Shown: positions 5,849-30,357 of the stretch, one piece after another
Layout of the letters: the number at the start of each line of letters is the position of its first letter
Numbering within the stretch: position 1 is the stretch's first letter
From: an uncultured Methanosarcinales archaeon
GTDB lineage: Archaea > Nanobdellota > Nanobdellia > Woesearchaeales > CAZPDB01
Direction: 5' to 3'
NCBI GenBank assembly: GCA_964585285.1
Contig: CAZPDB010000004.1
Coordinates: 2,839 to 33,195, forward strand
Length of the DNA stretch: 30,357 bases
The notes under the pieces: generated by a model
Database searches by the model: none
Told to the model about the DNA's origin: nothing
Seen by the model: the letters and a program-made list of their open reading frames with translations, nothing else
Position numbers and translations under genes: made by a program

Positions 5849-5870
5849 TCTAAACCTAAATAGCATCAAA

Positions 5871-11317: not shown

Positions 11318-11439
11318 TTTAGGATAAATAGGATAAACATTTTATATAATCATCACGTTTTTCACATCGCCATCTTTTTATTTAAAAATTTTAAAAAAAA
11401 TAAAAAATTAGGGGATAGGAAGTTGGAAAGGAAACCTAC

Positions 11440-12702
11440 TTAGTAGTAGGCTTGTCCTGAGATGTCTTCCTCTTCTTCTCCGCCTTTAAGTTTAGTGAAC
11501 AACACTATCAGTCCAATTATCACTAACAAAGCGATAAGCACGTAGAGGGTTACTTCTAGTCCCTTGATCAGTCCTTTGTCTCCACTGCCAGCTTTGACAT
11601 TAGCTGTCATAGTCACTGCATATTCTTGTTCTCCATCATTTAGTTTAACAGAGAACATTTTTGCTCCTTCTGCTGCCTCTTCACTTGGAGTCAGATAGAC
11701 ATAGATAGTTTGTGTTCCTTGTCCAGCAACTGAAATTGTATTAGATGGCTGTACTTGAACACTTGCCCATCCTTCTACTCCTTCAACACTCACCACAAAG
11801 TTTTTGCTTTGACTGGCTGGGTTGCTGATGGTTATTGGGAAAACAGCAGCTGTTCCTGCATTGACATCAGCAGACTGTGCTCCAACAGTAACACTTGGTT
11901 TAGCCTCAACATCAATAATTGGAATATCGCAGGACTCATCTTCTGTCACTAGGATATCATCTTCAACTTCATAACTCTCGTATCCCTCGTCGTATTCTAC
12001 TTCTACTTCCACACTGTATCTTCCGCCTGGAGAACAGTCTGGGATTCTCAAGTAGATTGGTTCTGAGAGGGTGCTCTCATCATATTCTAATTCGTCAATA
12101 TAAGTGGATTGTTCAACTCCGAGTTCTGGGATTCTTACTGTTACTTTGATTGCTTCCTCATCTTTTTCTCCCAAGTTCTTAACCCGAACATTAGCCACTA
12201 ACAATCTGCCTGCTTGAACACTGTGGGCTGGAGTAAAAACAACATCTCTAATCTTAAGCTGATGTCTTTCCACATCAAGTTTGAGATTAAAGTTTTCAAC
12301 TTCTTCATCTCCATATCTGTCAGCTACAACTACCCTTAATTTGTAGTCGTCTTCATCCACCTTGTCTGGCAGGTGCAATTTTAATTTCTTTACATACTTA
12401 ACTCCTGATTCCATATCTGAGATGTGTTCAAAATCTGCAATTCTTTCATGGTCATTATACTCATAACCAAAGATGAATGCAGCAATTTCCACATCAGAAA
12501 GATTATCCTCAGCTACAATTTCAACTCTTACTTCAAAGTCTCCATCTCTTATTAAGTCAAGTCTGTTGACTCCATTTGGTTCAACCTCAGTGCCGTCAAC
12601 CTGCACTTCGGTGATATTTACTGGCAGTGCCTGAGCAATTCCTACCAAAGCAAGTATGCTTACCAGGAACAACACTAAAACTCCTATTTTTCTTCCTTTC
12701 AT
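11440..12702 (-). CDS. S-layer-like protein with CARDB/NEW3-like Ig folds and a C-terminal TM anchor
   Basis: Signal ending IAQA, about three acidic beta-sandwich domains, C-terminal TM then EEEEDISGQAYY. GGGGGTAG SD-like sequence and a consensus promoter upstream. S-layer role is inferred. Confidence 0.7.
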   Translation of the reverse strand: MKGRKIGVLVLFLVSILALVGIAQALPVNITEVQVDGTEVEPNGVNRLDLIRDGDFEVRVEIVAEDNLSDVEIAAFIFGYEYNDHERIADFEHISDMESGVKYVKKLKLHLPDKVDEDDYKLRVVVADRYGDEEVENFNLKLDVERHQLKIRDVVFTPAHSVQAGRLLVANVRVKNLGEKDEEAIKVTVRIPELGVEQSTYIDELEYDESTLSEPIYLRIPDCSPGGRYSVEVEVEYDEGYESYEVEDDILVTEDESCDIPIIDVEAKPSVTVGAQSADVNAGTAAVFPITISNPASQSKNFVVSVEGVEGWASVQVQPSNTISVAGQGTQTIYVYLTPSEEAAEGAKMFSVKLNDGEQEYAVTMTANVKAGSGDKGLIKGLEVTLYVLIALLVIIGLIVLFTKLKGGEEEEDISGQAYY

Positions 12703-12793
12703 TTTATCCTACCCCCTTCAAATTTTTTGAAGATATTGTTTCTTATTTTTTTAGGAACATAACTTCTTCTTTATCGTCAAGTAACTTCCACCA

Positions 12794-12811
12794 ATATTTA
12801 AATCTTTCGCT
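12794..12811 (-). promoter_or_regulatory. BRE + TATA upstream of the S-layer-like gene
   Basis: Minus strand AGCGAAAGATTTAAATAT, identical to 25391-25408. Confidence 0.7.
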
Positions 12812-13020
12812 TTTTTAGTATATTGGAGTAGTTACATAAGTTCACTATTCTTAAGTTGTTTTTGTCTGGTTAAGTCCTCTGAATACTCTTGGTTTTCTCT
12901 TATTCCACCTATTTTTAGAAGCTTTCTTAGAAGCTTTTTCCAAAAGACTTGCTGTTCTTTTGAATTTTTAAGTTTTCTTGTCTTCTAAAAAATACTTTGA
13001 TTCATAACTTTTTTATGATA

Positions 13021-16000
13021 CTATTCTATAATTTTCACTTCTTGCCAGAGGATTCTTCTTTGTTCTCCATCTTCATTAATAGTTATCATAACCGGATAAA
13101 TTCCTGGTTTGGTTCCCGCTGGTATTCTCACTGCTCCCACTTTAGTCACTCTTTCATCATGTTCCAGTTTGAATGGACCGTATTGTCTGTACACCCCTAA
13201 CTCTGGCAGGGCAATTAACACTTTTGTCTTTCCCATATCATAATAATCATTATTTCTGAAATTTACACTCACCAACAAATCTTCTCCTGGACGTACTTCC
13301 CCTCCGTTGATAAACTCTACAAGAGAGAGATAGATTTTTCTTCTTGGCAGATGCTCTTTAGGAGGTACCATCACCCTTATCGTGAATGATTGTCTGTCAT
13401 TACTGGTATTCCCTCTTGTTCTAGCTTCAACTACTACTTTGTTGCTTCCTACTTGCTTCTTCTTTGGTGTCCAGACAATTAAACCATTTTTTTTATTAAT
13501 GGTCATGCCCCCTGGCTTATCTACCAGTTCATAAATTATTTCTTCTCCGTCTGGATCTACTGCATCCACATCATATTTGTATACTGAGTCAAACTCATTA
13601 GGATCATCAATTAAAAAGTCAGTTATTGGGGTGGAAATAATTCTCACTCCCCTATCCATCTCTCTCACCCTTACTTCAACAACTTCTTCCACACTATGAT
13701 TGCCATCACTCACCCTGACCACAAATTCATAGACTCCGCTATCTTCAAATCCAGTCTGCCATTCAAATCTATTTCCCACACCTTCTAAACTAACTTGTTT
13801 AAATCTAGTGTCATTAATTGAATAAATAAGTTCTTCCTTGGGAGTTTCTTCATCACTGGCATTGATAATAATGACTGCTGTCTCATTTTCCAGCACATCT
13901 AAAGAACCATAAATAGAATTTATTTCCGGAGCATCATTTTCAGGGTTAATAGTTAAAATAAATTCTGATTCAGCAGCCAAGTCCCACACCTTTGCTTCTA
14001 TCTTAAGGCTGGTGTTGCCATAGACATTCTCATAACTATTACAATCAAGATAATGTTCATTAATAATTGAGCAGGAAACTACTCCTTCATTGCTTGTATT
14101 GGCTGAGAATTCCACCAAACTACTATCATAAAAAGTTAAATAATCCCAAAGGTTTATTTGCCAGTTGCCAAAGTCTTCACTCAAATTTACATTTGGCATC
14201 TCTTCTAAGATCAATGCTGGAGAACCAACATTGACAGGAATGATTTCTTCCACTCTTCTCTCATCCGCATCTATCACTCCCACTCTAATCTGGCCGTTTC
14301 CCGGAGCTTGAGACCTCACTCTTAGGCTTTTCTCACCCTCACTAACATTTACAGTCTCAACTTCAAATACGCCTTCACCACCTTCAGTTATTATTTCCAT
14401 TTCAATTTCTCCTTCTATATCCCTGGCTCTCACAGTTACATTTTCTCCTTCTGGCAGTATTAAATTAACCTCATTAGGGCCTATTTCTATTTCTGGTGGA
14501 TTGTTAAGAATTTCTAAATCCATTTCCCATGAATCTTCTAATGTATAAGGCATTGAAACAGGCATTGAAACCAGCCTATAACCAATCTTTAATTCACCCT
14601 CTCCAGTCTCTGCTGTTACTGGAAGGGTTATCATAGCTGAGAAAGTCTCTTCTTCAAGGATGATATCATTCTCATTAATACTGAATATTTCATTTCCTTG
14701 AGAATCATAGATTGTTAAGTTTAGTTCACCTTCTCTGTGATTAACATATTCTTCGTCAAGATGATTATATATCTTAAAATTAATTTCTTCTTCTCTACCC
14801 CTATAAATTTCTTCAGCTAAGGAGCCTATTTCCAAACTTAATCCTGTTTCAATCACTTCATAACTAATCTTGTCCATTATCTGGTAACCTTGGTATTCAA
14901 GAGTAAAGCTAATCTCGTGTTCTCCTACACCAGAAACTATCCACGAACCAGAACAGGTTCCATCCTTATCAGAAGAACATTCATCCTTTTCTACTCCATT
15001 ATCATTAAAAGTAATTTCTGCTCCTTCAGCTGGATTATTATCATAATCTATTATAATCTCGCAGGTTTGTCTTTCTCCTTCAACCAGCCTGTCAAAAAGG
15101 CAAGTAGCAGAATAATTTATTTTCTCTGGGTCAAAAGATTCAATAACTTCAACTTCAAATTCAGTTTGAGCACATTCTTGGTCTAAATCACAGACTTCCA
15201 CACTTATTTTAATCTCTCCTTCTGCTAAAGCTTCTATGATTAGAACTTCTTCTTCAATCCTTGCTCCTACTATCTCATTATCCTCTACATCAATAACTTT
15301 CCATTCCAGAATTTCTTGATCTTCAACATCAACTGCCTTTCCTTCTAAATTAATTTCTCTTCTTTCTTCAATTTCTAATTCCAACTCTTCAAATTCTCCA
15401 ACAACCTCTGGAGGATTGTTCATGACCATGATAGTTACTTCTCTTTGTCCGCTGGTTTCATCTTCAAAATTAACTGCAAATGTTTTTAACAAAGTTTCGT
15501 CAATAAAATCATGATTAGCCGGAATCACTCCTTCAAACCTATAATAATCACCAACCAATCCCTCAGCATCCAACTTCAACTCTCCGCCAGCACTACTTCT
15601 TAAAACTGCGCTGGTCACAATGCTTTCATCACTCACCAACACATTCCCCTCATTCAAATCACGAACCCTAAAACTAACATAAATATCTCTGCTCCGATAA
15701 AACTCATCACTCTCCACACTATAACCACTATCATTATACACTCCCAAATCAGTAATGTTATACCTGGAACTAAACACACTATAACCAAAACTAGGCTCAT
15801 CATCCAAATCAGGCACAAACTCAGGGAACAACTGAGCAGTAGCATAAACCTCATAATCTCCCAGCTCCTCCTCTGTCCAGCTCGCACTACAACCACCACT
15901 CAACTCATCAGTCAAACACTCACCAACCCAAACATCATCATCCCTAACTCCAACCATACCATCCTTCTGATAAAAATTAACTTCCACCCCTCCCACAGAT

Positions 16001-19000
16001 GTTTCTCCTGCATTAACCATCACATTACAAGTCTGCCTTTCATCAACTGTCACAATCTCATCACAATCAATACTCTCCACTTCCAACTCATTACCCCTAA
16101 CACTAACCCCAACAATTTCTTCATCAAAATCCCCATCAAGATCAACCAGATGCAAAACAACATCAGCTTCACCAACACTCTCCCCAACCAAACTCAAAAT
16201 CTTTCCTCCTCCAAGATTAACCCCAACCACATCTTCATCAAAATCAACCAACTCCCAACTCAAATTCTCCCCACTATCCTCCAAATCAAACTCATACTCC
16301 TCCAAATTAAACAATCTCTCCTCACCCACTCTTAAATCAATCTCACCTAAATCCCAACCAACAACCTCTGGAGGATTGTTCATGACCATGATAGTTACTT
16401 CTCTTTGTCCGCTGGTTTCATCTTCAAAATTAACTGCAAATGTTTTTAACAAAGTTTCGTCAATAAAATCATGATTAGCCGGAATCACTCCTTCAAACCT
16501 ATAATAATCACCAACCAATCCCTCAGCATCCAACTTCAACTCTCCGCCAGCACTACTTCTTAAAACTGCGCTGGTCACAATGCTTTCATCACTCACCAAC
16601 ACATTCCCCTCATTCAAATCACGAACCCTAAAACTAACATAAATATCTCTGCTCCGATAAAACTCATCACTCTCCACACTATAACCACTATCATTATACA
16701 CTCCCAAATCAGTAATGTTATACCTGGAACTAAACACACTATAACCAAAACTAGGCTCATCATCCAAATCAGGCACAAACTCAGGGAACAACTGAGCAGT
16801 AGCATAAACCTCATAATCTCCCAGCTCCTCCTCTGTCCAGCTCGCACTACAACCACCACTCAACTCATCAGTCAAACACTCACCAACCCAAACATCATCA
16901 TCCCTAACTCCAACCATACCATCCTTCTGATAAAAATTAACTTCCACCCCTCCCACAGATGTTTCTCCTGCATTAACCATCACATTACAAGTCTGCCTTT
17001 CATCAACTGTCACAATCTCATCACAATCAATACTCTCCACTTCCAACTCATTACCCCTAACACTAACCCCAACAATTTCTTCATCAAAATCCCCATCAAG
17101 ATCAACCAGATGCAAAACAACATCAGCTTCACCAACACTCTCCCCAACCAAACTCAAAATCTTTCCTCCTCCAAGATTAACCCCAACCACATCTTCATCA
17201 AAATCAACCAACTCCCAACTCAAATTCTCCCCACTATCCTCCAAATCAAACTCATACTCCTCCAAATTAAACAATCTCTCCTCACCCACTCTTAAATCAA
17301 TCTCACCTAAATCCCAACCAACAACCTCTGGAGGATTGTTGAGTATCATCACTTCAACATCTCTTTGCCCGCTTGATTTGTCTGTATAATTGATGACCAG
17401 ACTTGTTAAGATACTTTCATCAATAAAATCATGGGTTAATGGGATTCGGGCTTCATAATGGTACCAGCTGTCAGAGAATCCTTTCTTATCAAATTCAAGC
17501 ACTCCTCCTGCTGCCGGGCTGCTTAGTCTTACTTCGCTCACTACTTCATTCTCAATTAGTTCCCCTGTAAATATCTCTTCTACTTGGAATCTGACATAAG
17601 CCCACTCTCCTCTGTAAAAAGTTTCATCTTTAGTGCTGAAATCAGCATTTTTTGAGATTTCCAGATTAGTGATATTATATTTTGAACTATAGACTTCAAA
17701 GCTGGCTGTTGGTTCTTTTAATTCCCAATCTTTAAACCCATCTTTTTCAGCTCCAGCATAAACAGTCCATTCTCCCAGCCTTCCCGGACTAAAAACTACT
17801 CCGCAAGCTCCAGTAATCTCATTTGTTGAACAACTACCTAAGCTTTCATCATTATCATAATTATAAAGTTCAACTTCTACCTCTCCAATCATTCTACTAT
17901 CAGCCTCTATCTTAGCATTGCATATCTGAGTGTTATCAACAGTCATTATAGGGTGAGCACAGTTAAGAGAAACAATAACTAATTGATTATCAAGCACCTC
18001 CACTCTAAAGATTCTGGCTTCCATTCCTTGGTCACTATCTACCACAGTCACAGTTATCTGGCTTGTTCCCTTAGCTTTTCCTTCTATCACCAATTCTTCG
18101 CCCAACACTTCTACTCCTACTATGTCCTGAGCAGAACTTTCTGCAGTGATAATTAATTGGCCATACTCATCTTCCAAATCACTAATTTTCTCTCTCAGGT
18201 TTATTCTTTTTTCTTCTCCAGTGTATAATTCAATATCAGAAATGTCTCCTATCTCTGGTTCGTTGTTCCAGAGATAAATCTCTTTGCTTCCTTGACCAGC
18301 AGTATTATCAATAAAATTAAAGGCAAAACTAAAGACCTTGCCTGGCTGGTTCTCATCTGTTGTTAAATAATCATCTGTTAATGGGATTGCTTCCAGATAG
18401 TATCTATAATATAATTGTTCTGCTGATATTTGGGCTAAGGCTGGAGAACTTAAAGTTGAAGCATCTTTATAACTTTCTACTTGTCTTACAAACATCCCGC
18501 TTCCTACTGGTTCTAACCCAATAAAATCAAAATAAAGTGGCTCAGCATTTTTCATTCTCAAGAAAACTTCTGTCACTACTTCCTCATTCACAAACTCTCC
18601 ACTGAATTTGTCTTTAACTTGGAATTGAACAAAGACCTGATCTCCTCTGTAAAATTCATTTACGCGATTAACAAAATCACTCTCATTATAAGTGTCCAGA
18701 TTAATTATTTGATATTGTTCTGCCCAGACTTTGAATTCTTTTTCTGTACTGCTCCTTGCTGATTCATATCCTTCTTTCTCAGCTTCAACATAATAACTGT
18801 AATTTGCTGGTTCAAGATTAATCACTGGTTCAATTATGACATAACCATAATCATCTGTTTCTCCACTACCAATACTTGTGCCATCTCCTAGTTTGAATCC
18901 AACCTCTGCCCCGGTAACCATATATTCTTCATCATCACTAGTGCTCACTCCAACCCTAGCTGTGCAGTATTGTTCTTTTCCCTGAACCACATTCGGATTA

Positions 19001-22000
19001 CAGCCAAATTCTTTTATTTCCAGTTCTGCTCGAACAGTTATTGGTTTAGTGATTTCATCACTTAATCCTCCCTTATCAGTCACTTCTAAAATAACATCAT
19101 AAACACCCGGCTCTTCATAAACATGACTCACTCCCACCCCTTCACCATCTGAACCATCACCAAAATCCCATTCATAACCAACAATATCCTCACAATTTCT
19201 CCCTTCACAATCAGGGTCAGCGCTTTCTGAAGTAAAAACCACCTCTTCAAAAACAAGTGGTTCTAAAGGTTCATAAACAAAATCAGCTTCAGGCCTATCA
19301 TTAACATTAACCACCCTAACCAAAACATCCTCACTCACAACCCCACCATCAGTATCATTAACAACAAAACTTATTATCTCTTCATCATCAACAAATCCTT
19401 CTAAAGGAATAATAGTTGCCACCCTATTAATTATCTGCACCCCGACATTTTCACTCCCAGAAGCACTCCATAACAATTCCTCATCTGGTGTTTCCACATC
19501 TTCAACATAATCATCTAAAACCAAATTCTCTACCTCATATTCACCAATCCTTACCACTTCAGGTAAACTCACACTTGGCAGATTATTATAGACTCTCACA
19601 CCCAAATCTTCCTGACCAGCTGTGCCATCTTCCAGATTAAAAACAAAACTAAACACCTTGCCCTCTCCCAAAAAGTCATCAGTCAATGGTATTGACTCCA
19701 AATAATAACGATAATAAACAGGTCCCTGACCAGCACTATTAACCTCAGAATATTGTTCTCCAATCATCACATAAGCACCTACCTCTTCCAAATATTCTTC
19801 AAAATAAAGAGGTTCATCATTATTCACCCTTAAGAAAACCTCCTTTAACAAACCCGGATCATCAACATAATCACCTGAAAACAAATCAACAATCTGGAAT
19901 TGAGCATAAACAGAATTACCCCTATAAAACTCCCTAGAAGATGTAATAAACTCATCTGAATAAACATCAAAATTAGTAATATTATACTGGTGTTCCCAAA
20001 CCCTAAACTCAAACAGCTCTGATTCTCCAGCTTCATAACCTTCCTTTCCAGCTCTAACATAAACTCTCTCTAACCCCGGCTCCCTCTCAATCACTGGATT
20101 AATATGACCATAACCTTTGAAGTTTGTCTCTACCCTACCCAATTCTTCTCCATCCTCATAAAAGAATATCAACTCTGCTCCCTCAACCGCAAACTCCCTA
20201 TCAACCAATTCAACTTTTGCACTGCAATGCTGAATCTCACCCCGAACCACGTTAGGATTGCAGCCAAACTCTTCTAATTTCAAAGCCCCACTTACCTGCA
20301 CACTCTTAACTATCTCATCACTTAATCCTCTCTTATCAGTCACTTCTAAAATAACATCATAAACACCCGGCTCTTCATAAACATGACTCACTCCCACCCC
20401 TTCACCATCTGAACCATCACCAAAATCCCATTCATAACCAACAATATCCTCACAGTTTCTTCCTTCACAGTCTTGGTCATGAGAAATTGATCTAAAATTA
20501 ACTTCATCCAAAACTACTGGGTTGAGTGGTAAATAAGCAAAATTAGCTTCAGGCCTATCATTAACTGGTTTAATAATAATCTTAAACCCTTGAGTGACAA
20601 TATTTTTACCATCAGAAACAATTAAGTCAACATTGCAAATCCCATTAAAATTAATTTCTGGGTGGATATCTAGATAATTTCTTTCATCAACCATTGCTCC
20701 GCATCTTTCGTCATCTTGTTCAAGGGAATATTCCAGGTTTCGGCTTGGTGTCTCTGCATCAATAACATAATCTGGGAAATAAAGAAGGTCATTTTTTTGT
20801 TCATCCTCATCCATAAAAATATCTTCAATCTCTTCAATCACTGGAGCATCATTAACCCAATCAACTGTTACTTGGACTGGCTCAGAATAAGCAAAAGCTC
20901 CTTCTGGATCAACCACCTTAAAAACCAGTTCTTCTCTTCCATCCCAATTGGTTTCCGGTTCTATTCTTATTAAGTGTTCTTCACTATTTGGGATAACATC
21001 CACAGTTAGATGCCTGTGCTCGCCAGTTTCCTCTACTTCCAGTGCAGAGTCAGCATCATCTTCATCATTTATGTAAGGATCAATATCAAATTCGTAAACT
21101 TCATCTTCCTGCATATTGATATCTGGGATCTTTGTAAACATTGGCGCTAGATTATTTTTTCTCATTGAAACATAAATATAATAATCAGCAAATCCTAAGT
21201 CAAATTCTCCTGAGTTTTTGGTATAGTCTGGATGGACAATTTCATAGATATATTTTCCAGGTTCAAGATTAATTCTTGCCTCTCCCTGTTCATCACTGAC
21301 TGCATTCCAAATATCAGATCTAGACTCCGTGTTTATTACTTCAACTGAAGCTCCTTCAATTGCATTGTTCGTATCAATCTCCTTAATCAAGAAATTCACA
21401 TCATAGGTTGGGACTGGCTGAACATAGATTTCTTCTTCCAGAGTCTCTTCAAAATTATTTAATCCCTCACAAAGATTGCTCTCTCCCAGACCTCTAACTC
21501 GGATAATATACCGGCCAGTTTCTTCAGGAGTCCAGCTAAAACTTATCTCTGTTGGCTCATAAGCATCCGCATTCTCTTCCACTACCAAATCGTTTTCAAA
21601 AACAATCTCTCCTGTTTCTTTTTTAACAATCTCATAATTAACCCTGGTTGGGATTGGTGTGTATTGATCAAGATTATCCATATAATTGCTTGTCTTTTTA
21701 TAATATATAGTTAGTTCATCTCCAACAATTGGGAACTGTTCATCTGTTCTTAGATTATTCAGCAAAGTATAACATTGTCCCACTGGCCTGGCTGGCAGCA
21801 CATTGAAATTTTTATTAGTGCTTTCTGTTTCAGCACTCAAACACTGACAATCAGTCACTTCTGATTCTAAGACTGCTTTATAATTTTCTCCAGCTATAGT
21901 TGGTGTCCACATAAACCTTATTGTTTCATGTGTGTCCATGTAGATATTTAATTCCCTGCTATCCTCATAAACCATTTCTCCTTCTGGATTATAAATCTTT

Positions 22001-22614
22001 AAACGAACAATTGTCTCTGCGCTGTAAAACTCTTCTTTATACTCTTCAGGGATGTAATGTGGTGCTCTTCCAGAGGAATGGAAAGCTGAATAAGTTTCTG
22101 CATCCAGTCTGGCATCTACTTCCACTACTAATGGTTCATTTTCGTGAACAGTATTAATAATAGAAAAATCTTCAATTGGCGCGTGGCAATTTTCTGCTTT
22201 ACCTAAGTAATGGTCATAATAATAACTCATCCCTCCCCCCCAATTATTAGGTATTACTCCTCTCATTGGAGCATAGCATTCTTTGAATAAATAAATAGCA
22301 TAATCTCTTGGTTCAGAAGTGTAAGGATAAACTATTGTTACAGAGTTTTCTTCTCCAGAATTATCATTAAAGATGGGTGGTTCTTTTACTGCCCAGCACT
22401 GTTCCAGATTGTCTTCACATTCATGAACAATCATTTGCACCCCATTTAATGGTTCTCTACTGTATTGGTCATAAAAAGAATCCACTTCTCTGTTGCCGTC
22501 AGCTAAAACTATTGGTAAAAAAATCAGAACCCCAGTTAAGATAATTAAAAATAAAATATTTTTTTTGAGTGGGTTTGTTTTCATTTTAGTTTTCACCATC
22601 ATAATCTTCACCAT
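13021..22614 (-). CDS. Giant (3197 aa) secreted adhesin-like protein with PKD, cadherin-like and repeated Ig modules
   Basis: Signal peptide (true start may be 22584), two PKD domains (YEWDFGDG..SHVYEEPGVYDV), many NDAP/NNPP..DxD cadherin-like units, six FYRG-type modules, CARDB-like C-terminal domain, no C-terminal TM. Confidence 0.9.
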   Translation of the reverse strand: MVKIMMVKTKMKTNPLKKNILFLIILTGVLIFLPIVLADGNREVDSFYDQYSREPLNGVQMIVHECEDNLEQCWAVKEPPIFNDNSGEENSVTIVYPYTSEPRDYAIYLFKECYAPMRGVIPNNWGGGMSYYYDHYLGKAENCHAPIEDFSIINTVHENEPLVVEVDARLDAETYSAFHSSGRAPHYIPEEYKEEFYSAETIVRLKIYNPEGEMVYEDSRELNIYMDTHETIRFMWTPTIAGENYKAVLESEVTDCQCLSAETESTNKNFNVLPARPVGQCYTLLNNLRTDEQFPIVGDELTIYYKKTSNYMDNLDQYTPIPTRVNYEIVKKETGEIVFENDLVVEENADAYEPTEISFSWTPEETGRYIIRVRGLGESNLCEGLNNFEETLEEEIYVQPVPTYDVNFLIKEIDTNNAIEGASVEVINTESRSDIWNAVSDEQGEARINLEPGKYIYEIVHPDYTKNSGEFDLGFADYYIYVSMRKNNLAPMFTKIPDINMQEDEVYEFDIDPYINDEDDADSALEVEETGEHRHLTVDVIPNSEEHLIRIEPETNWDGREELVFKVVDPEGAFAYSEPVQVTVDWVNDAPVIEEIEDIFMDEDEQKNDLLYFPDYVIDAETPSRNLEYSLEQDDERCGAMVDERNYLDIHPEINFNGICNVDLIVSDGKNIVTQGFKIIIKPVNDRPEANFAYLPLNPVVLDEVNFRSISHDQDCEGRNCEDIVGYEWDFGDGSDGEGVGVSHVYEEPGVYDVILEVTDKRGLSDEIVKSVQVSGALKLEEFGCNPNVVRGEIQHCSAKVELVDREFAVEGAELIFFYEDGEELGRVETNFKGYGHINPVIEREPGLERVYVRAGKEGYEAGESELFEFRVWEHQYNITNFDVYSDEFITSSREFYRGNSVYAQFQIVDLFSGDYVDDPGLLKEVFLRVNNDEPLYFEEYLEEVGAYVMIGEQYSEVNSAGQGPVYYRYYLESIPLTDDFLGEGKVFSFVFNLEDGTAGQEDLGVRVYNNLPSVSLPEVVRIGEYEVENLVLDDYVEDVETPDEELLWSASGSENVGVQIINRVATIIPLEGFVDDEEIISFVVNDTDGGVVSEDVLVRVVNVNDRPEADFVYEPLEPLVFEEVVFTSESADPDCEGRNCEDIVGYEWDFGDGSDGEGVGVSHVYEEPGVYDVILEVTDKGGLSDEITKPITVRAELEIKEFGCNPNVVQGKEQYCTARVGVSTSDDEEYMVTGAEVGFKLGDGTSIGSGETDDYGYVIIEPVINLEPANYSYYVEAEKEGYESARSSTEKEFKVWAEQYQIINLDTYNESDFVNRVNEFYRGDQVFVQFQVKDKFSGEFVNEEVVTEVFLRMKNAEPLYFDFIGLEPVGSGMFVRQVESYKDASTLSSPALAQISAEQLYYRYYLEAIPLTDDYLTTDENQPGKVFSFAFNFIDNTAGQGSKEIYLWNNEPEIGDISDIELYTGEEKRINLREKISDLEDEYGQLIITAESSAQDIVGVEVLGEELVIEGKAKGTSQITVTVVDSDQGMEARIFRVEVLDNQLVIVSLNCAHPIMTVDNTQICNAKIEADSRMIGEVEVELYNYDNDESLGSCSTNEITGACGVVFSPGRLGEWTVYAGAEKDGFKDWELKEPTASFEVYSSKYNITNLEISKNADFSTKDETFYRGEWAYVRFQVEEIFTGELIENEVVSEVRLSSPAAGGVLEFDKKGFSDSWYHYEARIPLTHDFIDESILTSLVINYTDKSSGQRDVEVMILNNPPEVVGWDLGEIDLRVGEERLFNLEEYEFDLEDSGENLSWELVDFDEDVVGVNLGGGKILSLVGESVGEADVVLHLVDLDGDFDEEIVGVSVRGNELEVESIDCDEIVTVDERQTCNVMVNAGETSVGGVEVNFYQKDGMVGVRDDDVWVGECLTDELSGGCSASWTEEELGDYEVYATAQLFPEFVPDLDDEPSFGYSVFSSRYNITDLGVYNDSGYSVESDEFYRSRDIYVSFRVRDLNEGNVLVSDESIVTSAVLRSSAGGELKLDAEGLVGDYYRFEGVIPANHDFIDETLLKTFAVNFEDETSGQREVTIMVMNNPPEVVGWDLGEIDLRVGEERLFNLEEYEFDLEDSGENLSWELVDFDEDVVGVNLGGGKILSLVGESVGEADVVLHLVDLDGDFDEEIVGVSVRGNELEVESIDCDEIVTVDERQTCNVMVNAGETSVGGVEVNFYQKDGMVGVRDDDVWVGECLTDELSGGCSASWTEEELGDYEVYATAQLFPEFVPDLDDEPSFGYSVFSSRYNITDLGVYNDSGYSVESDEFYRSRDIYVSFRVRDLNEGNVLVSDESIVTSAVLRSSAGGELKLDAEGLVGDYYRFEGVIPANHDFIDETLLKTFAVNFEDETSGQREVTIMVMNNPPEVVGEFEELELEIEERREINLEGKAVDVEDQEILEWKVIDVEDNEIVGARIEEEVLIIEALAEGEIKISVEVCDLDQECAQTEFEVEVIESFDPEKINYSATCLFDRLVEGERQTCEIIIDYDNNPAEGAEITFNDNGVEKDECSSDKDGTCSGSWIVSGVGEHEISFTLEYQGYQIMDKISYEVIETGLSLEIGSLAEEIYRGREEEINFKIYNHLDEEYVNHREGELNLTIYDSQGNEIFSINENDIILEEETFSAMITLPVTAETGEGELKIGYRLVSMPVSMPYTLEDSWEMDLEILNNPPEIEIGPNEVNLILPEGENVTVRARDIEGEIEMEIITEGGEGVFEVETVNVSEGEKSLRVRSQAPGNGQIRVGVIDADERRVEEIIPVNVGSPALILEEMPNVNLSEDFGNWQINLWDYLTFYDSSLVEFSANTSNEGVVSCSIINEHYLDCNSYENVYGNTSLKIEAKVWDLAAESEFILTINPENDAPEINSIYGSLDVLENETAVIIINASDEETPKEELIYSINDTRFKQVSLEGVGNRFEWQTGFEDSGVYEFVVRVSDGNHSVEEVVEVRVREMDRGVRIISTPITDFLIDDPNEFDSVYKYDVDAVDPDGEEIIYELVDKPGGMTINKKNGLIVWTPKKKQVGSNKVVVEARTRGNTSNDRQSFTIRVMVPPKEHLPRRKIYLSLVEFINGGEVRPGEDLLVSVNFRNNDYYDMGKTKVLIALPELGVYRQYGPFKLEHDERVTKVGAVRIPAGTKPGIYPVMITINEDGEQRRILWQEVKIIE
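15398..17340. repeat. Exact in-frame tandem duplication, 960-bp unit (320 aa)
   Basis: Line-by-line comparison of 15398-16380 with 16358-17340 found no mismatch. Confidence 0.97.
19055..20472. repeat. Pair of near-identical 158-bp PKD-core repeats (19055-19212 and 20315-20472)
   Basis: Offset 1260 bp; 4 mismatches, all transitions; flanks diverged. Confidence 0.93.
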
Positions 22615-22642
22615 TATAAATTAATTTTTGAGAGATTTTTAT

Positions 22643-25231
22643 TTAAAACTTATTCTCTTCAAGCTCGCCTCTACCTCCACTTACCCCTCCTCCACCAATG
22701 CTTTGTTCAGCAGTTGCTCCAATGAATATAATATAGTTTGTTCCTAATCTTACTATGCTTTTCCAGGCTTCTGTTTGGCGGGTTTTAAATTCTTCCAGAT
22801 CAAAGGTAGCGTTGTCAAGATTGGTGGTGAATCTGCCCTGCCCATTTTTAAAAGCTACTGCCACTAAATTATCTTTATCATCAACCAACATCATCGGTAT
22901 TTCTTTGTAATCAGCAAGCATTGTTTCAAAAGCTTCTTTGGTTATACTTTCTGGTTCAAGATAATCTTTTTCCACTATTTTCTTTTCTCTAAAGCCATTT
23001 CTCACTCCAAAAAAACCATTTTTTCTTGCTTCTTCTATCTCTCTTCTGTCAGTTAAACGAGATGGATGTACTTTCTCCAATACTGCTCTTGTCCTTCCTT
23101 CTTTTGCCGCTTCTTGTTTTGGGATAATTTCTATCTGAGCATCACCTACAGAAGGATTAGCTAAATCTCTGGACATGCCTTTTCCATAGATGTTAATTTG
23201 GTGTCCTGGTTCAAACATTACTAATTGGTATTTTGTGCCTGCTGGTGCGCCACTAATTTCTTTTTCATAAATAGGCAGTCTCTCGTCTTCCACAGATTTA
23301 AGGATCTCTCCCAGATCTTCTTTAACTGCTTCTCTTGCTGCATCATAAGCTTCTTTGGTTGTTCCTCCCCTAAACAAGATTTGAGCCAGAGCTGTTGGCA
23401 ATCTTCCTTCCTTCATATATTCACCTGCTTTAATTATGTCTCCAGGCAGATTAAGGCCGTCAAGAATCACTTCTGCTGGTTTGCCTCCTGCTTTTCTCAC
23501 AGCTCTTCCAGGTAAACTAATAATTTTACCTGCTTTTCCAGCTCCTTTTTTTAAAGCTTTGATTGGATTAGAACCTTCTCCACCACTTTCCTCAACCACT
23601 CTGCTTTCTCCTCCTTCATTCCACTTTTCAAAATAAGTTGGGAGTGGGTTATTAACTACACCTTCCAGGTATCCTTGTCTCACTTTTTCTCTCTCACTTT
23701 CTGGCGCAAAATTCCTTGCCCAGATATCTGCTCCCTGCCTTAAATATTCTCTTAACCAAGGCTCTGCTTCTTCTAACTCTCCTTGTCCTTCAGCAGTCTT
23801 GTACATTTCACAGAAAGTTTCCATAAATCTCTCTTCAGCAGATGATCCAAATAAATTTTTAAAGAATTGGACAGCTGTTTTTGAATTTGGTTTTTTTCCC
23901 TGCACTATCCTTTCCAAATCCTCTTCAGAATAACTTGGTGAATAATCATCCAGAGCAGCAAAAATATCTTCTTTCTGTTTTTTCCTAATTTGTTTTTCTT
24001 CCTGCTGCGTTGACAAGCTTATTTTTTCTGGTTGGTCTTCTTTTACTTCTTTTGATAGGATTGGGGTAGTTATTTCTTGTTCTGGTTCAAAACTTTCTAA
24101 ATATCTTCCTAAATTTTCTCCCTCTAATTCTATCTCTGCTCCAGCTTTAACTCTCTGAGCTAATTCCTGGCCTCTTTCCTTGGCTTCTAAAACCTCTTTC
24201 TCTGAGCCAAAGCTTCCCAGATAATCCATTAAGCAATCATTATTCTCTTTTTCCCAGCATTCTTTGCCTTCCAAAACTGTCAGCAACCAGAGATTTTGCA
24301 GGGCTGTTCCCTCGTATTTTTCTCCAAGATTTTCCCTAACCATAGGATCTTCATTCTTAGTTTCTTGTTGCAGTACTGCTTTATACAATTCTTTTCTTGA
24401 TTCAAAATCAGAGGAGAGATTTTTTGATTTAAGATAATCAACTATTGAATTTTTATTGATTCCATCAATTCTTCCTTGTTCATCCTGAGTTTGTTCCTGC
24501 TGAATTTGCTCCACTCTTATGTTTTCACTCTTATTTTCATTTTCTGCACACACCTGACTTAGAGGTAATAAAGAGCTGGAAATTAATAATCCCGCAGCCA
24601 CTAAACCAGCAGCTGCTTGCCCCCAACCTTCTCTTGCATATCTGTTTATTCTCTTCAGTAAACTTGATTCATCTTTTCCTTTATCATAATTTGCTTGAGT
24701 GTGGCTTGCTTGAGTGCGGGTTTTACCAACAGCATCATCAATAGAAATACCAGTATAGGTTGCCTCTGGTTCTCCAACAGAACCTTCAACAGAGGATTCT
24801 AATTCTCCCGGTTCAATCAATTCCAGAGAATTTGCTGGTAAAAGATATTCTTTTAAATTTGATCTGGTTCTGTCAGCCATACTCCTTAATCGGGTATGGA
24901 CATTTTTCTTGTTTCTTTTTAAATAATTGTTAGAATTAACTTCATTGGTTAAGAGCTCATTAACAACTGCCAGGTCTTCTCTCACTTCTTCATTTATTTC
25001 TTCTGGAGCCAATTGAGTTAAGTAATCATCTAGACCTTCTAGTTTCTCATTAAGATATTTTTCCCTCTCTGTCCATTTCCATGCTCTTTTGCCGTCAGCC
25101 CGGTAATTTCCTGAAAGAATTTGAGCAACATCATCAATATATCCTCTTAAATTTTCTCTGGCTAAAGAATTTGATTCATAATTAGCTGTGTAATCATCTA
25201 AAATTGAATTCCTTGTAGCAATAATCCCCAT
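22643..25231 (-). CDS. 862-aa membrane protein of unknown function with a DUF3597-like motif
   Basis: About 200-aa N-terminal region, one hydrophobic helix (aa ~202-229), then NSIVDYLKSKNLSSDFESRKEL..YEGTALQNLWLL, and a Gly-rich C-terminus. GGGGGTAG SD-like sequence. Confidence 0.75.
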   Translation of the reverse strand: MGIIATRNSILDDYTANYESNSLARENLRGYIDDVAQILSGNYRADGKRAWKWTEREKYLNEKLEGLDDYLTQLAPEEINEEVREDLAVVNELLTNEVNSNNYLKRNKKNVHTRLRSMADRTRSNLKEYLLPANSLELIEPGELESSVEGSVGEPEATYTGISIDDAVGKTRTQASHTQANYDKGKDESSLLKRINRYAREGWGQAAAGLVAAGLLISSSLLPLSQVCAENENKSENIRVEQIQQEQTQDEQGRIDGINKNSIVDYLKSKNLSSDFESRKELYKAVLQQETKNEDPMVRENLGEKYEGTALQNLWLLTVLEGKECWEKENNDCLMDYLGSFGSEKEVLEAKERGQELAQRVKAGAEIELEGENLGRYLESFEPEQEITTPILSKEVKEDQPEKISLSTQQEEKQIRKKQKEDIFAALDDYSPSYSEEDLERIVQGKKPNSKTAVQFFKNLFGSSAEERFMETFCEMYKTAEGQGELEEAEPWLREYLRQGADIWARNFAPESEREKVRQGYLEGVVNNPLPTYFEKWNEGGESRVVEESGGEGSNPIKALKKGAGKAGKIISLPGRAVRKAGGKPAEVILDGLNLPGDIIKAGEYMKEGRLPTALAQILFRGGTTKEAYDAAREAVKEDLGEILKSVEDERLPIYEKEISGAPAGTKYQLVMFEPGHQINIYGKGMSRDLANPSVGDAQIEIIPKQEAAKEGRTRAVLEKVHPSRLTDRREIEEARKNGFFGVRNGFREKKIVEKDYLEPESITKEAFETMLADYKEIPMMLVDDKDNLVAVAFKNGQGRFTTNLDNATFDLEEFKTRQTEAWKSIVRLGTNYIIFIGATAEQSIGGGGVSGGRGELEENKF

Positions 25232-25506: not shown

Positions 25507-26784
25507 ATGGTTTTCATTATTGGTGGTGGTCCAGCAGGTCTTTATGCAGCCCATCTCTTAGCCAAAAAAGGCTTTGAGGTCACGCTTTTTGAAGAGCATC
25601 AAGAGATAGGAAAACCAATCCAATGCACAGGCATCACTACCTCTTCACTTAAAAAATATCTTCCCAGATTAGAACAGGAAAAAGAAAAAAAAGAATATTT
25701 TAAAAATAATTCAGTTGAAAGTGCTAATATTAATCCTGTCATTAACAAAATCTTCTCAGCTCAGGTTTTCTCTCCCCACCACCAGGTTGAATTTAATTTC
25801 CATCAACCCAATCTTATCCTCAACCGCCACATTTTTGATAATTACCTGGCTCAGCTTGCCCATCAGTCTGGGGCAAAAATTTTCACCTGCCATCGTTTTC
25901 TCCAGATCAAAGACAATCACCTTTTAATCAAAGATTTCAAAAACAAAAAGATAAAAAGATTCCCTTTCACTTCTCAAACAGCAGTCATTGGCGCTGATGG
26001 GCCTAACTCCAAGATTTCTTCTCTTATCAATTCTAAAAGCAATTCCCAGTTTAACAATACCCATCTTAGACCACAATTTTGGTCTGGTGCCCAAGTCCGT
26101 CTCAAACTTAAAAATGCTAACCAAGTCAAATTCTATCCTTTTCTCGGCGCTATGGCCTGGCTTGTTCCTGAAAATAATGATATTGCTCGTTTTGGAGTCT
26201 TAACCAGACAAAATCAATCCTCTTATTTTTTGCTTCAGCATTTACTCAAATCGCATTTACTCAAATCTTATCTTAAACATTCCTCTCCATCCTTTCCTGC
26301 TGAGAAAAAACCCAAAATTCTTGGATATCAGGGAGGTCTTGTGCCAATTTTTCAACCAAAACTTAAATTACAAAAAGATAATCTTTTTCTTCTTGGTGAT
26401 GCTGCCACCCTTGTCAAAGCCACAACTGCCGGCGGCATTGTCCAGTCTCTTGAAAGCGCCCGCCTTCTAACCAAAAGTCTTTCTCAAAAAAAAGATTTTT
26501 CCACATTAATAAAACCACTCAAAAAAGAACTCTTCCTTCACCTTTTAGCCAGAAGAACTATTAACAAATTCTCTGCTCAGGACTGGGATAATCTCCTCCA
26601 GTTGGTTAATCAAAAGAAAACCAAAAATTTGTTAGAAAGTTTTGACCGGGATCACTTTTCATCCTTTGCTCTGCGCTTACTTATCCATCAACCCAGGTTT
26701 ATCTCATTTGCTAAATATTTATTTCCTTTGCCTAATCTCTACCATCAATCGCAGGAGAACACAGGAGAACAACAATCTTTATAA
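25507..26784 (+). CDS. Geranylgeranyl reductase family FAD-dependent oxidoreductase
   Basis: IIGGGPAG, KPIQCTG, RHIFDNYL, IGADG and LLGDAA..TTAGGI motifs. Confidence 0.92.
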   Translation: MVFIIGGGPAGLYAAHLLAKKGFEVTLFEEHQEIGKPIQCTGITTSSLKKYLPRLEQEKEKKEYFKNNSVESANINPVINKIFSAQVFSPHHQVEFNFHQPNLILNRHIFDNYLAQLAHQSGAKIFTCHRFLQIKDNHLLIKDFKNKKIKRFPFTSQTAVIGADGPNSKISSLINSKSNSQFNNTHLRPQFWSGAQVRLKLKNANQVKFYPFLGAMAWLVPENNDIARFGVLTRQNQSSYFLLQHLLKSHLLKSYLKHSSPSFPAEKKPKILGYQGGLVPIFQPKLKLQKDNLFLLGDAATLVKATTAGGIVQSLESARLLTKSLSQKKDFSTLIKPLKKELFLHLLARRTINKFSAQDWDNLLQLVNQKKTKNLLESFDRDHFSSFALRLLIHQPRFISFAKYLFPLPNLYHQSQENTGEQQSL

Positions 26785-26811: not shown

Positions 26812-29800
26812 ATGGTTGAAAAAGAAACTTCTCCAGAAAAAAAAGGAAAAAAAGAAGTCAGAGAAGAATCAGAAACAGGAAAAGAAAAAGAAGAGATTAA
26901 AAAAGAATCAGCAGAGAAACCAGCAGATGAGTCAACAGGAGAATCAAAAGAAGAAGCCAATGTAGAGGAAGAAATCACCCTTGATTTTTCCAGAGTAAAG
27001 AACATTTTTCGCCGGAGAAAAAAAAAGGATGAAAAGCTTAAACAAGAACTGGAGGATGTTGAAGAGGAAGTTAAGGATGAGGAAGAATCGCTTCAAGAGG
27101 AGATTGAACAAGGAGAAGAATTAATTGGAGAAGCCAAGCAAAAAATTTCTGAAGATAAAAAAAGAATCCGACAGCTTAAAAAAGAAGAGGAAAAGATTGG
27201 AAAAGCTGAAAAAGAGATTGAAGAACAGACTGAAGAGGATTTTGAAACTGCTCTTGATTTTTCTAAACTCAAAAAATGGTTCAGCCATTTAAAAAAAGAT
27301 GAGGAAAAAGCGCCTGGTGAAGCAGGAAAAGAAGAAAAAGAAGCTGAAGAATTATCTCTGGATCTTAAAAGCACAGCCCGATTCTTCACCCAACCTAAAG
27401 TGTATATCCCTCTTTTGATTATTATTGCTATGTTCTTTGCTGTTTTTTTTAGAGTCCAGTCTGCTTATCTTCCTGTTACTGATGATTGGGCTAAGAGCAC
27501 TGTTGAGAATTATTTTAAATCTCAATTAATGGGGCAGATTAATCAGCAAAATCCTCATCTGCCTCAGGAAAACAAGCAGATTCTTCTCCAGCAAAAATGG
27601 ACAGAATATAAGAATCAGAATAAGAAGATTATTAATGAGCAGATTTCTCTTCTTTCTCAGCAGTACAAAGAGGTTTTTCAGGATGACCAAACCGGGCACA
27701 CTTATCTTTTAGCTATTGACCCTTATTATTATTTAAGGCATGTTCAGCATTATTTGGAGAATGGTCAGGCCGGCACTACTTATATTGGCGGCGATTATGG
27801 GGTTAGTGATGATATTAAGTTATATTTTACTGGCCGGGATAAGGAGTTTGATTTCAGCCGAGCTCTTGATTGGGATGGACAGCGAATGGCACCTATTGGT
27901 TCTCCTTCTAAGATGAATCTGCACACTTATTTTGAAGCTTATTTATACAAGTTTGTTCATTTTTTTAATCGTGATCTGCCTCTAACCACTTTAATTTTTT
28001 ATATCCCTGTTATCATTTCTTCTTTAGCTGTCATTCCTGCTTTTTTTCTGGGCAGAAAGATGGGAGGTAATGTTGGCGGTTTGTTTGCTGGAGTGATGAT
28101 TGCTGTTCATTCTGCTTTTATTAACCGAACTGCTGGTGGTTTTGCTGATACTGATGCTTATAATGTCTTTTTTCCCTTGCTTATTGTCTGGATCTTCTTA
28201 GAAGCTTTTGAAACAACTAATCTTAAGAAAAAATTTGGTCTAACCATTCTAGCTGGTTTCTTCACTGGCTTGTTTGCTTTTGCCTGGTCAGGTTGGTGGT
28301 ATATTTTTGATTTTATTCTTGGCGCCATGGTCATTTATTTGCTTTATGATATTTTTATTTATAGGAAAGAGATTAAAAGAGGTTTGAGGAATTATCTCAC
28401 TCAGACTACCATTAAAAACACTCTTTTAATTTTTATTGCTTTTATTTTATTTGCTGGTTTGTTTGTGACTTTGTTTAAAGATTCCAGTAATTTTATCCAA
28501 GCTCCTTTCCAACCTATCATCAGAGCAAAAACTCTCAAGACTGTGGGCGTAGTTACTATCTGGCCTAATATTAAAACCACTGTGGCTGAGCTTAATCCTG
28601 CTTCATTAAAAGCTATTATTAATCAGATGGGAGGCAAGTTTTTATTTTTGGTTGGTTGTTTAGGCGTTCTTTTGTCTTTTATTAAAAAAGATAGGTTTGG
28701 CAAGACAGATATCAAATATGCTATTATTATTTTAATTTGGTTTATTAACACTATTTATATGAGCACTCAGGGTGTCAGATTCACTTTATTGCTTGTGCCT
28801 GCTTTTTCAGTTGCTTTTGGTGTTGCTGTCGGAATTATTTTCAACTACTCCTCCAAATGGGTTTCTAAAGAGCTTAATATGAACAAGGTTCTTGTCTCAA
28901 TAGTACTTTTTGTTTTGCTCTGTCTCTTGTTTATTAAACCAATGAAGATGGCGCAGGCCACTGCTCAACAAGAGATTCCCAGTATGAATGATGCCTGGCA
29001 TACTGCCTTAACTAACATCAAGACCAATTCCAGTCAGGATGCTATCATTAACAGCTGGTGGGATTTTGGTCACTGGTTTATCACTCTTGCAGATAGAAGG
29101 GTAACTTTTGACGGTGGGGGCCAGGATAAGCACATGGCTCATTGGGTAGGAAAAAGTTTGTTAACTAATACAGAGGAGAAAACTATCGGAATTTTAAGAA
29201 TGGTTGATTGCGGTAATAATAACGCTTTTTGGGCTCTTAATAGCCTTATTAATGATACAGTCACTTCTATTGATGTCCTCAATGAGATTATTGTTCTGGA
29301 TAAAGAAGAGGCCACAACAACTCTTGCTCAATACATTCCTCAGGAAAAAATAGATCATGTTTTGCAGTATACTCACTGCCCACCCCCTGAAAATTATTAT
29401 ATCACTTCAGATGATATGGTTGGTAAGGCTGGTGTTTGGGCTCATTTTGGCAGTTGGGATTTCAAACGGGCTCTAATTTATCATACTCTTAAAAAGAAAG
29501 CGTATAAAAATAATCAGGCTAAAAGTGTTGAATTTCTTAAGAACAAGTTTAATTACTCCCAACAAAAAGCAGAAAATTTGTTTTATGAGGTTCAATCTAT
29601 TGGTTCTAATAAAGAGGCTAATTCTTGGATTGCTCCTTGGCCTAGTTATCGCGGTCAGTCTAATTGTCAGGAAACAAAAGAGGGTATTTTTGAATGTAAT
29701 AACGTCCGGGTCAACTGGCATAATCTTACTGCTACTTTAACTACTCAGCAGGGTTGGGTTAAACCAGCTTCCCTTGTTTATCCTACTGCTCAAGGTGTTG

Positions 29801-30357
29801 AGGAGAAGAAGTTTGATTCAGATGTTCCTTATTCAGTCATCTTCATCAAAAAGAGGAATTCTGCTCAGGTTGTTCTCTCTGATCCAGCTCTGGCTGCCAG
29901 CACTTTCACTAAACTTTATTTCTTTGAAGGCCATGGTTCTAAGTTCTTTGATTTATTTGACTTGCAGACAGCGCCTACTGGCACCAGAATTTATGTTTGG
30001 CAGGTTGATTGGCAAGGCCTGGGCAAGTATCTTAATCCTGCCTTTTTACCTTTAAAAGAAGTGGAAATTGAACACTTGCTTCTTTGCCATAATGAATCTG
30101 TTATGCCTTGCCCTCTTAATTTAACCAAGCAGCAAGCACAAGAACAGGCTGAGGAGATTTTAGAAGAGCTTCCTCAATACAATTATTCTTTCCAGGATTA
30201 TAAACAAGAACATAATCAGAGTGTTATCTATGAATATTTGGGTTTCATCAGTCAAGAATCTCCTTTAGATCCTCATTTTCTTGAGGCTGCCTTGCCCCTT
30301 TCTGCTCAGGAGATTTCCAGTATTGTTGAGACCCAGTTTGGTTTTCATCTTATCAAA
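26812..30357 (+). CDS. aglB: Oligosaccharyltransferase AglB (STT3 family) with charged N-terminal extension and C-terminal parvulin-like domain; 3' end outside window
   Basis: Manual frame-1 translation is open for 1182 codons: AIDPYYYLR, GFADTD (28147), TVAE (28579), GVRF, SWWDFGHW (29056), DMVGK (29413), IYVWQVDW. Absent from the ORF track because there is no stop in the window. Confidence 0.97.
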   Translation, partial: MVEKETSPEKKGKKEVREESETGKEKEEIKKESAEKPADESTGESKEEANVEEEITLDFSRVKNIFRRRKKKDEKLKQELEDVEEEVKDEEESLQEEIEQGEELIGEAKQKISEDKKRIRQLKKEEEKIGKAEKEIEEQTEEDFETALDFSKLKKWFSHLKKDEEKAPGEAGKEEKEAEELSLDLKSTARFFTQPKVYIPLLIIIAMFFAVFFRVQSAYLPVTDDWAKSTVENYFKSQLMGQINQQNPHLPQENKQILLQQKWTEYKNQNKKIINEQISLLSQQYKEVFQDDQTGHTYLLAIDPYYYLRHVQHYLENGQAGTTYIGGDYGVSDDIKLYFTGRDKEFDFSRALDWDGQRMAPIGSPSKMNLHTYFEAYLYKFVHFFNRDLPLTTLIFYIPVIISSLAVIPAFFLGRKMGGNVGGLFAGVMIAVHSAFINRTAGGFADTDAYNVFFPLLIVWIFLEAFETTNLKKKFGLTILAGFFTGLFAFAWSGWWYIFDFILGAMVIYLLYDIFIYRKEIKRGLRNYLTQTTIKNTLLIFIAFILFAGLFVTLFKDSSNFIQAPFQPIIRAKTLKTVGVVTIWPNIKTTVAELNPASLKAIINQMGGKFLFLVGCLGVLLSFIKKDRFGKTDIKYAIIILIWFINTIYMSTQGVRFTLLLVPAFSVAFGVAVGIIFNYSSKWVSKELNMNKVLVSIVLFVLLCLLFIKPMKMAQATAQQEIPSMNDAWHTALTNIKTNSSQDAIINSWWDFGHWFITLADRRVTFDGGGQDKHMAHWVGKSLLTNTEEKTIGILRMVDCGNNNAFWALNSLINDTVTSIDVLNEIIVLDKEEATTTLAQYIPQEKIDHVLQYTHCPPPENYYITSDDMVGKAGVWAHFGSWDFKRALIYHTLKKKAYKNNQAKSVEFLKNKFNYSQQKAENLFYEVQSIGSNKEANSWIAPWPSYRGQSNCQETKEGIFECNNVRVNWHNLTATLTTQQGWVKPASLVYPTAQGVEEKKFDSDVPYSVIFIKKRNSAQVVLSDPALAASTFTKLYFFEGHGSKFFDLFDLQTAPTGTRIYVWQVDWQGLGKYLNPAFLPLKEVEIEHLLLCHNESVMPCPLNLTKQQAQEQAEEILEELPQYNYSFQDYKQEHNQSVIYEYLGFISQESPLDPHFLEAALPLSAQEISSIVETQFGFHLIK

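Follow-up and report, generated by a model that had tools for sequence, protein, structure and literature searches.

A parvulin-fold domain at the C terminus of an archaeal oligosaccharyltransferase

What could it mean for an archaeal oligosaccharyltransferase (OST) to run on, in frame, into a domain that resembles a prolyl isomerase? The question is posed by the last gene of the stretch of DNA analyzed here (the window, 30,357 nucleotides in all), a forward-strand open reading frame for an AglB-parvulin fusion (26812-30357) whose 1182 amino acids are cut short at the 3' end, contig and window stopping at the same nucleotide. The gene belongs to a small, uncultivated DPANN-type archaeon; its source genome, 1.0 Mb and 90% complete, was recovered as a metagenome bin broken into 85 contigs. 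Answers depend on whether the fusion is genuine, on which side of the membrane the added domain lies, how widely relatives share it, and what a parvulin with an eroded active site might contribute to N-glycosylation.

Architecture and identity of the fused domain

The protein opens with an E/K-rich cytoplasmic region (aa 1-196; 26812-27399, forward strand, as are all parts of the gene), followed by the OST membrane domain (aa 197-711; 27400-28944), which is delimited by the Pfam STT3 match, hydropathy, invariant columns and likeness to STT3A and PglB chains, and in which about 11-12 hydrophobic segments can be counted from simple hydropathy, against the 13 TM helices typical of the family. The external C-terminal AglB domain comes next (aa 712-1067; 28945-30012), with W749-W-D-F-G753 at 29056-29070 and V1065-D-W1067 as its last residues (30004-30012). 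Unfused relatives stop shortly past this V-D-W position. In the window copy, a 15-aa linker (Q1068-K1082; 30013-30057), with low pLDDT at model residues 35-37, leads into the parvulin-fold domain (E1083-K1182; 30058-30357), which stops three profile positions short of the end of the Rotamase family; relatives go on for 5-27 residues past the point where the window copy is cut. The coordinates proposed for this domain in the initial annotation agree exactly with this layout.

The OST part of the fusion looks functional, judging by its motifs. The STT3 family (PF02516) matches aa 282-706 at 142.3 bits (cut-off 24.5, E 4e-41), and the AglB sequence resembles STT3A and PglB chains. In alignment A2 (36 fused homologues), no variation is seen in D303, D446-T-D448, T590-V-A-E593 or, for the W, W, D and G of this WWDYG-type motif, in W749-W-D-F-G753; on the basis of known PglB and AglB structures, we take D303, D446/D448 and E593 to be the catalytic acidic residues. 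In the DK/MI region, where the alignment is coarse, D767-K781 aligns with the STT3A segment DNNTWNNTHISRVGQ, and D767, G768 and Q771 are invariant in A2.

Comparison with GT66 relatives (human STT3A, 6S7O; C. lari PglB, 3RCE; the C-terminal domain of P. horikoshii AglB, 3VU1) places both the shared and the added parts. The STT3 domain, the acidic residues of the external loops, TVAE (of the TIXE/SVSE type), WWDFG past the final TM segment and a large external C-terminal domain are common to all. The matched characterized structures are without a peptidylprolyl isomerase (PPIase) domain, whereas in the window AglB the linker and parvulin together add about 115 residues to the normal end; unlike the matched OSTs, it also has an extra charged cytoplasmic extension of about 190 aa, with a repeated motif, before TM1. 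In this N terminus one copy of EE-I-T-L-D-F-S-R-V-K-N-I-F is accompanied by two looser copies, and the N-terminal extensions of AglB relatives hold one to five copies of (D/E)(D/E)-I-S-I-D-F-S-K-I-K-x-F-F-K. When searched with a strict pattern, 85 of 121 AglB relatives have the repeat, and it is also present in P0002, P0003, P0042, P0084, P0088 and P0108. The motif may serve to dock a cytoplasmic partner.

Identification of the C-terminal extension as a parvulin had first been made from the sequence alone, by its likeness to the PpiC/rotamase pattern, and profile searches bear this out. Rotamase (PF00639, curated cut-off 21.7 bits) matches aa 1088-1182 over profile positions 1-94 of 97, at 29.8 bits for the whole protein (E 1.2e-6) and 36.6 bits for the tail piece alone (E 9e-9). 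The Rotamase_3 profile also scores above its own cut-off, and the NCBIfam PrsA-type 'peptidylprolyl isomerase' model matches aa 1083-1182. The residues that had been listed as signatures of the family, H1088, H1179, F1155 and T1174-Q-F-G, are all present.

Structure prediction likewise returned a parvulin fold. The AlphaFold2 model of aa 1040-1182 (22 homologues) has a mean pLDDT of 85.6, exceeding 90 in the domain and low in the linker only, and its secondary structure runs from a strand through two helices, a strand and a helix to two final strands. In a Foldseek search of the PDB, the top matches were all parvulins (Pin1, PrsA, SurA domain II, NmPin and Ess1), with probability 1.0 and TM-scores of 0.6-0.68 as normalized on catalytic-domain-only targets. 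The best PDB sequence match of the domain is B. subtilis PrsA (E 1e-5), followed by Ess1 and SurA. A profile of the fused-parvulin family scores PrsA at 104-112 bits, NmPin at 106, SurA domain II (P2) at 83 and Pin1 at about 82; on these scores the family fits extracytoplasmic chaperones best, with NmPin and Pin1 close behind. Two stand-alone proteins with three tandem parvulin domains each, P0152 (392 aa) and P0159 (376 aa), are among the nearest matches of the domain.

The reading frame across the junction also withstands inspection. Four runs of a single microbial-mat study supply Logan contigs that span 29972-30138, 30033-30347 and 30006-30357 with no indels, and 30000-30060 is thereby bridged. 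GC content does not break where AglB and parvulin meet, and on the opposite strand of the parvulin region every open reading frame is shorter than 60 aa. Two of the Logan contigs, from runs X2 and X4, extend beyond the window by 91 and 102 nt; the terminal 41-mer of the window, searched as an exact string, matched nothing in metagenome_contigs.

A probably external domain with an altered active site

The location of the domain can be approached from the enzyme that carries it. The WWDYG domain is outer or lumenal in all solved STT3/PglB/AglB structures, and a simple hydropathy scan finds no hydrophobic segment past aa 711. From this homology, the lack of a later transmembrane segment, and the cysteine pair and sequons described below, we infer that the parvulin domain would lie outside the cell.

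All four Asn residues of the 100-aa domain (N1094, N1103, N1124 and N1135) sit in N-x-S/T sequons; shuffled versions average 0.37, and none of 5000 reaches four. C1092 and C1100 lie with the first two of these sequons in an insert after strand 1 (30085-30126), as delimited in the alignment of fused parvulins; the cysteine pair and four sequons noted at the outset are each in place. The insert, the cysteine pair and the following N-x-T (here N1103) are common to a subgroup of ten fused parvulins. A single origin of this subgroup was considered and not adopted: its members fall in many places on the AglB core tree, where starred branches force at least four changes, a pattern that either an ancestral state or domain exchange could produce. 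The pattern of cysteines and sequons is consistent with an external, disulfide-bonded, glycosylated domain, and the domain itself is presumably N-glycosylated.

When AglB (190-1066) and the tail (1067-1182) were modeled as a complex, the prediction scored 0.57, whereas the highest of three controls reached 0.00; the tool rates this as weak support. Its contacts involve tail residues 1-15, which comprise the final stretch of the last AglB strand and the linker; the parvulin body contributes one residue, 1149. The model was therefore not taken as evidence that the parvulin docks on AglB, near the active site or elsewhere, since the contacts come from the cut-off strand end and linker and not from the parvulin body; the prediction is compatible with a flexible tether.

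The active site is where the window copy departs from its family. H1088, H1179, T1174, L1143-G1144 and F1155 are kept. The catalytic His-(Cys/Asp)-His-Thr network is incomplete, with S1137 in the Cys/Asp column (Q1136 in the PrsA alignment), a position at which 16 of the 21 other A1 sequences have Asp and one has Cys; S1137 also belongs to the sequon N1135-Q-S. The surrounding loop (K1131-G1144; 30202-30243) has a 4-aa deletion and is without GGDLG and without the catalytic Asp/Cys: in place of GGDLG(W/F)F it reads I-Y-E-Y-L-G-F. The A1 consensus is (K/E)YSxDPGSxxxGGxLGWF...MVxEF...TQFG(Y/W)H(L/I)I, and the domain is canonical in most fused homologues, with Rotamase scores of 74-82 bits for canonical fused copies versus 30 for the window copy. 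Degeneracy of the LAkkyS/GGDLG segment, as first called, is thus confirmed by the segment KQEHNQSVIYEYLG and the low Rotamase score, and it is unusual among fused copies. No alternative frame encodes a hidden canonical loop and independent contigs agree with the sequence, so the loss is no sequencing artefact.

The window copy is not the only one to have diverged. P0122 (aa 948-1100, 18.7 bits) and P0190 (aa 935-1055, 18.9 bits) carry fused parvulins that have degenerated even further, both below the cut-off, and in P0122 the first catalytic His is also lost; erosion of the fused domain is therefore a repeated event. Strain variants within the window domain (n = 4) comprise three synonymous changes and one non-synonymous change (P1162S), too few to prove selection, and the pattern hints at constraint on the domain. 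What is new for the window copy is its degenerate active site, the conserved subgroup defined by the cysteine pair and N-x-T, and the placement of every Asn in a sequon.

Recurrence of the fusion and of a second isomerase fold

Fusion of AglB to a parvulin extends well past this genome. Of the 120 AglB relatives that match best, 21 combine STT3 with Rotamase, on contigs of up to 397 kb, and one of these relatives carries the NCBI name 'peptidylprolyl isomerase'. When one genome was taken per family of the order, the full fusion (frame of at least 1000 aa) was found in 8 of 41, the source genome included; across the phylum it was found in 20 of 301 sampled genomes, all of one order and spread over 9 families. 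The survey of AglB homologues shows that the same fusion recurs in relatives, and within one family it reaches 11 of 36 genomes. In a representative library of 1.8 billion proteins, about 37 of the best 150 clusters (50% identity) extend from the end of AglB into the parvulin; among these best 150, the nearest match is 38% identical to the window copy and none has E <1e-30.

Taken together, the Rotamase score, the fold prediction, the contigs across the junction and the numerous homologues of the same architecture sustain the central proposal of the initial annotation, an AglB-parvulin fusion, and what the gene encodes is very probably a real, external parvulin-fold fusion. The annotation had also raised possible novelty, and here the outcome is divided. 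Full-text literature searches and a 2024 review of archaeal N-glycosylation yielded no published description of an AglB-PPIase fusion, so this part holds for the literature searched; the architecture itself is widespread in public sequence data.

A second isomerase fold appears at the same place. P0088, P0108 and P0144 have FKBP_C (PF00254) where others have the parvulin, and among 10 more relatives with long tails that were scanned, 9 have it there as well (at least 12 in all); carriers of the AglB-FKBP fusion include P0184 and P0186. No third type of folding domain was noticed in the tails scanned. These fusions of sister lineages share with the AglB-parvulin proteins the enzyme, the C-terminal position, the taxonomic neighborhood and a prolyl isomerase fold; the PPIase families themselves are unrelated (PF00254 versus PF00639).

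Trees of the AglB core interleave parvulin-fused, FKBP-fused and unfused sequences, with at least 10 state changes among 118 sequences. The starred clade of 26 that includes the window core comprises 18 members with parvulin, 1 with FKBP and 7 with neither, and the window core is sister to the unfused P0017 and P0023 (58% identity), which bear a short sequon-rich tail instead. Since the closest cores are unfused and other fused copies are more degenerate, the domain can evidently be lost or decay. Unfused relatives such as P0003, P0008, P0022, P0026 and P0078 have acidic, low-complexity, sequon-rich tails of 40-95 aa at the fusion position. Replacement of a stand-alone parvulin by the fusion was considered and set aside for the group, most fusion genomes also encoding a parvulin protein in a frame of 300-500 aa; the source genome is without a stand-alone parvulin.

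A tethered domain, probably beside the glycosylation site

A single-subunit OST needs its sequon in an unfolded, flexible stretch of the acceptor, and glycosylation therefore competes with folding. The explanation that we prefer begins here, and as a whole, including a client-handling role for the tethered domain, it is one in which we have moderate confidence. Held by a short flexible linker at the external C terminus of AglB, the parvulin would be positioned outside the cell, beside the glycosylation site, and would most likely act on the clients of AglB itself, chains that have just been exported and are still unfolded. By binding these as they emerge, a tethered parvulin or FKBP could keep proline-containing segments accessible for the OST, and prolyl isomerization could be sped up by the same domain afterwards. 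The idea of tethered folding or holding is strengthened by the at least 12 relatives in which the unrelated FKBP fold stands in the place of the parvulin: two unrelated prolyl isomerase folds at one position point to selection rather than accident, and specifically to selection for the handling of proline-containing clients beside the OST, which is the strongest argument available. A holdase or foldase role as such, read from sequence and predicted fold, has somewhat better than an even chance of being correct.

For the window copy, emphasis would fall on holding. Having lost the catalytic Asp/Cys and GGDLG and kept the pocket, the fold, both His and the Thr, it is expected to bind without efficient catalysis. 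Precedents exist in well-studied parvulins: C113S/A mutants of Pin1 are much less active, neither SurA P1 nor the PpiD parvulin has catalytic activity although both work as chaperone modules, and the isomerase activity of PrsA is not essential. The window copy would then have weak or no isomerase activity and work mainly by binding, as a disulfide-bonded and N-glycosylated domain; on this evidence it is probably an extracellular, glycosylated binding or holdase module more than an efficient isomerase.

Known systems offer partial parallels. PrsA (1ZK6, 4WO7) and SurA/PpiD (1M5Y) are the closest sequence matches of the domain and have the same fold, and by functional analogy they too present a parvulin at the outer face of a membrane, where newly exported chains are met. 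Unlike them, the fused domain has no lipoprotein anchor and no match to the N/C chaperone domain, the OST serving as anchor, and the window copy is without the Asp that PrsA and SurA P2 retain. With Ost3/Ost6 (Tusc3/MagT1) of the eukaryotic OST only the concept is alike, that of a folding-related module that holds substrates for glycosylation; Ost3/Ost6 is a separate subunit with a thioredoxin fold that works through mixed disulfides, and there is no homology. A broader proposal, that Woesearchaeales-type archaea repeatedly fused a proline-directed module to their sole OST and that the window copy is a pseudo-isomerase for client binding, a counterpart of Ost3/Ost6, is put forward tentatively, as an idea that may well fall short.

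Other readings would give the domain less to do. According to the one that survives best, it was functional in ancestors and is now a useless remnant drifting toward loss. An open frame over all 100 residues and a predicted fold with pLDDT >90 are hard to square with such decay, as are the retention of core residues, both His, the Thr, the cysteine pair and the N-x-T, the non-random, selected-looking placement of every Asn in a sequon, and the ratio of 3 synonymous to 1 non-synonymous strain variants. Decay would nonetheless account for the degenerate loop and low family score, for the loss of the domain in the nearest relatives P0017 and P0023, for the further erosion in P0122 and P0190 and for the at least 10 state changes on the AglB tree, and we regard it as unlikely.

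Alternatively, the domain might act in cis and not on substrates, as a glycosylated, disulfide-stabilized cap or spacer for AglB or for its placement in the envelope, or as an intramolecular chaperone of AglB's external domain. Four sequons, a cysteine pair and a lost catalytic residue would suit such a role, and the sequon-rich 40-95-aa tails of unfused relatives suggest that a glycosylated C terminus is itself selected; yet two unrelated PPIase folds were recruited, most copies have full catalytic motifs, which points to prolyl-peptide handling and not bulk, and the complex prediction gives the parvulin body no confident contact with AglB, all of which leaves this role quite improbable. An artefact, in which chimeric assembly or a frameshift joins aglB to a separate parvulin gene, gains some color from the position of the gene at a contig end in a metagenome bin of 85 contigs and is almost certainly wrong, being effectively refuted already by Logan contigs from four runs that bridge 29972-30357 without indels, by composition that is continuous across the junction, and by dozens of homologues on long contigs with the same in-frame architecture.

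The genome (90% complete) encodes one true STT3 and one parvulin, the fused copy, together with one FKBP (143-aa frame) and no cyclophilin. With a single STT3 that bears the parvulin, all N-glycosylation in the organism would pass through the parvulin-bearing enzyme. On the same strand, 27 bases upstream of aglB, lies a gene for a geranylgeranyl-reductase-family FAD-dependent protein (25507-26784; TIGR02032, E 2.5e-38, below the curated cut-off), a possible isoprenoid/lipid or dolichol-saturating reductase that might be co-transcribed with the OST.

Candidate clients may be close at hand, in a run of putative surface proteins on the minus strand (8948-25231). The run includes a 3197-aa PKD/Ig/He_PIG protein with a signal-like N terminus, an 862-aa protein without a family match, a 420-aa NPCBM_assoc/FixG_C protein and a 789-aa Big_9 protein with 13 sequons versus 6.1 expected. 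Also on the minus strand, a 666-aa protein with a Lon_C (S16) protease domain near its N terminus (3869-5869) has 10 sequons versus 2.6 in shuffles, and may be an external, glycosylated Lon-like protease.

A foldase or holdase within the OST would be a direct prokaryotic solution to the competition between glycosylation and folding, and would parallel the accessory subunits of the eukaryotic OST. Catalytically degenerate copies such as the one in the window constitute a natural experiment on whether binding or isomerization is what matters. Fused proteins of this kind are candidates for engineered glycosylation with better efficiency on substrates prone to folding. If the reading of the window domain as a holding pseudo-isomerase is true, the efficiency of glycosylation in these archaea would depend on chains being kept unfolded at the enzyme.
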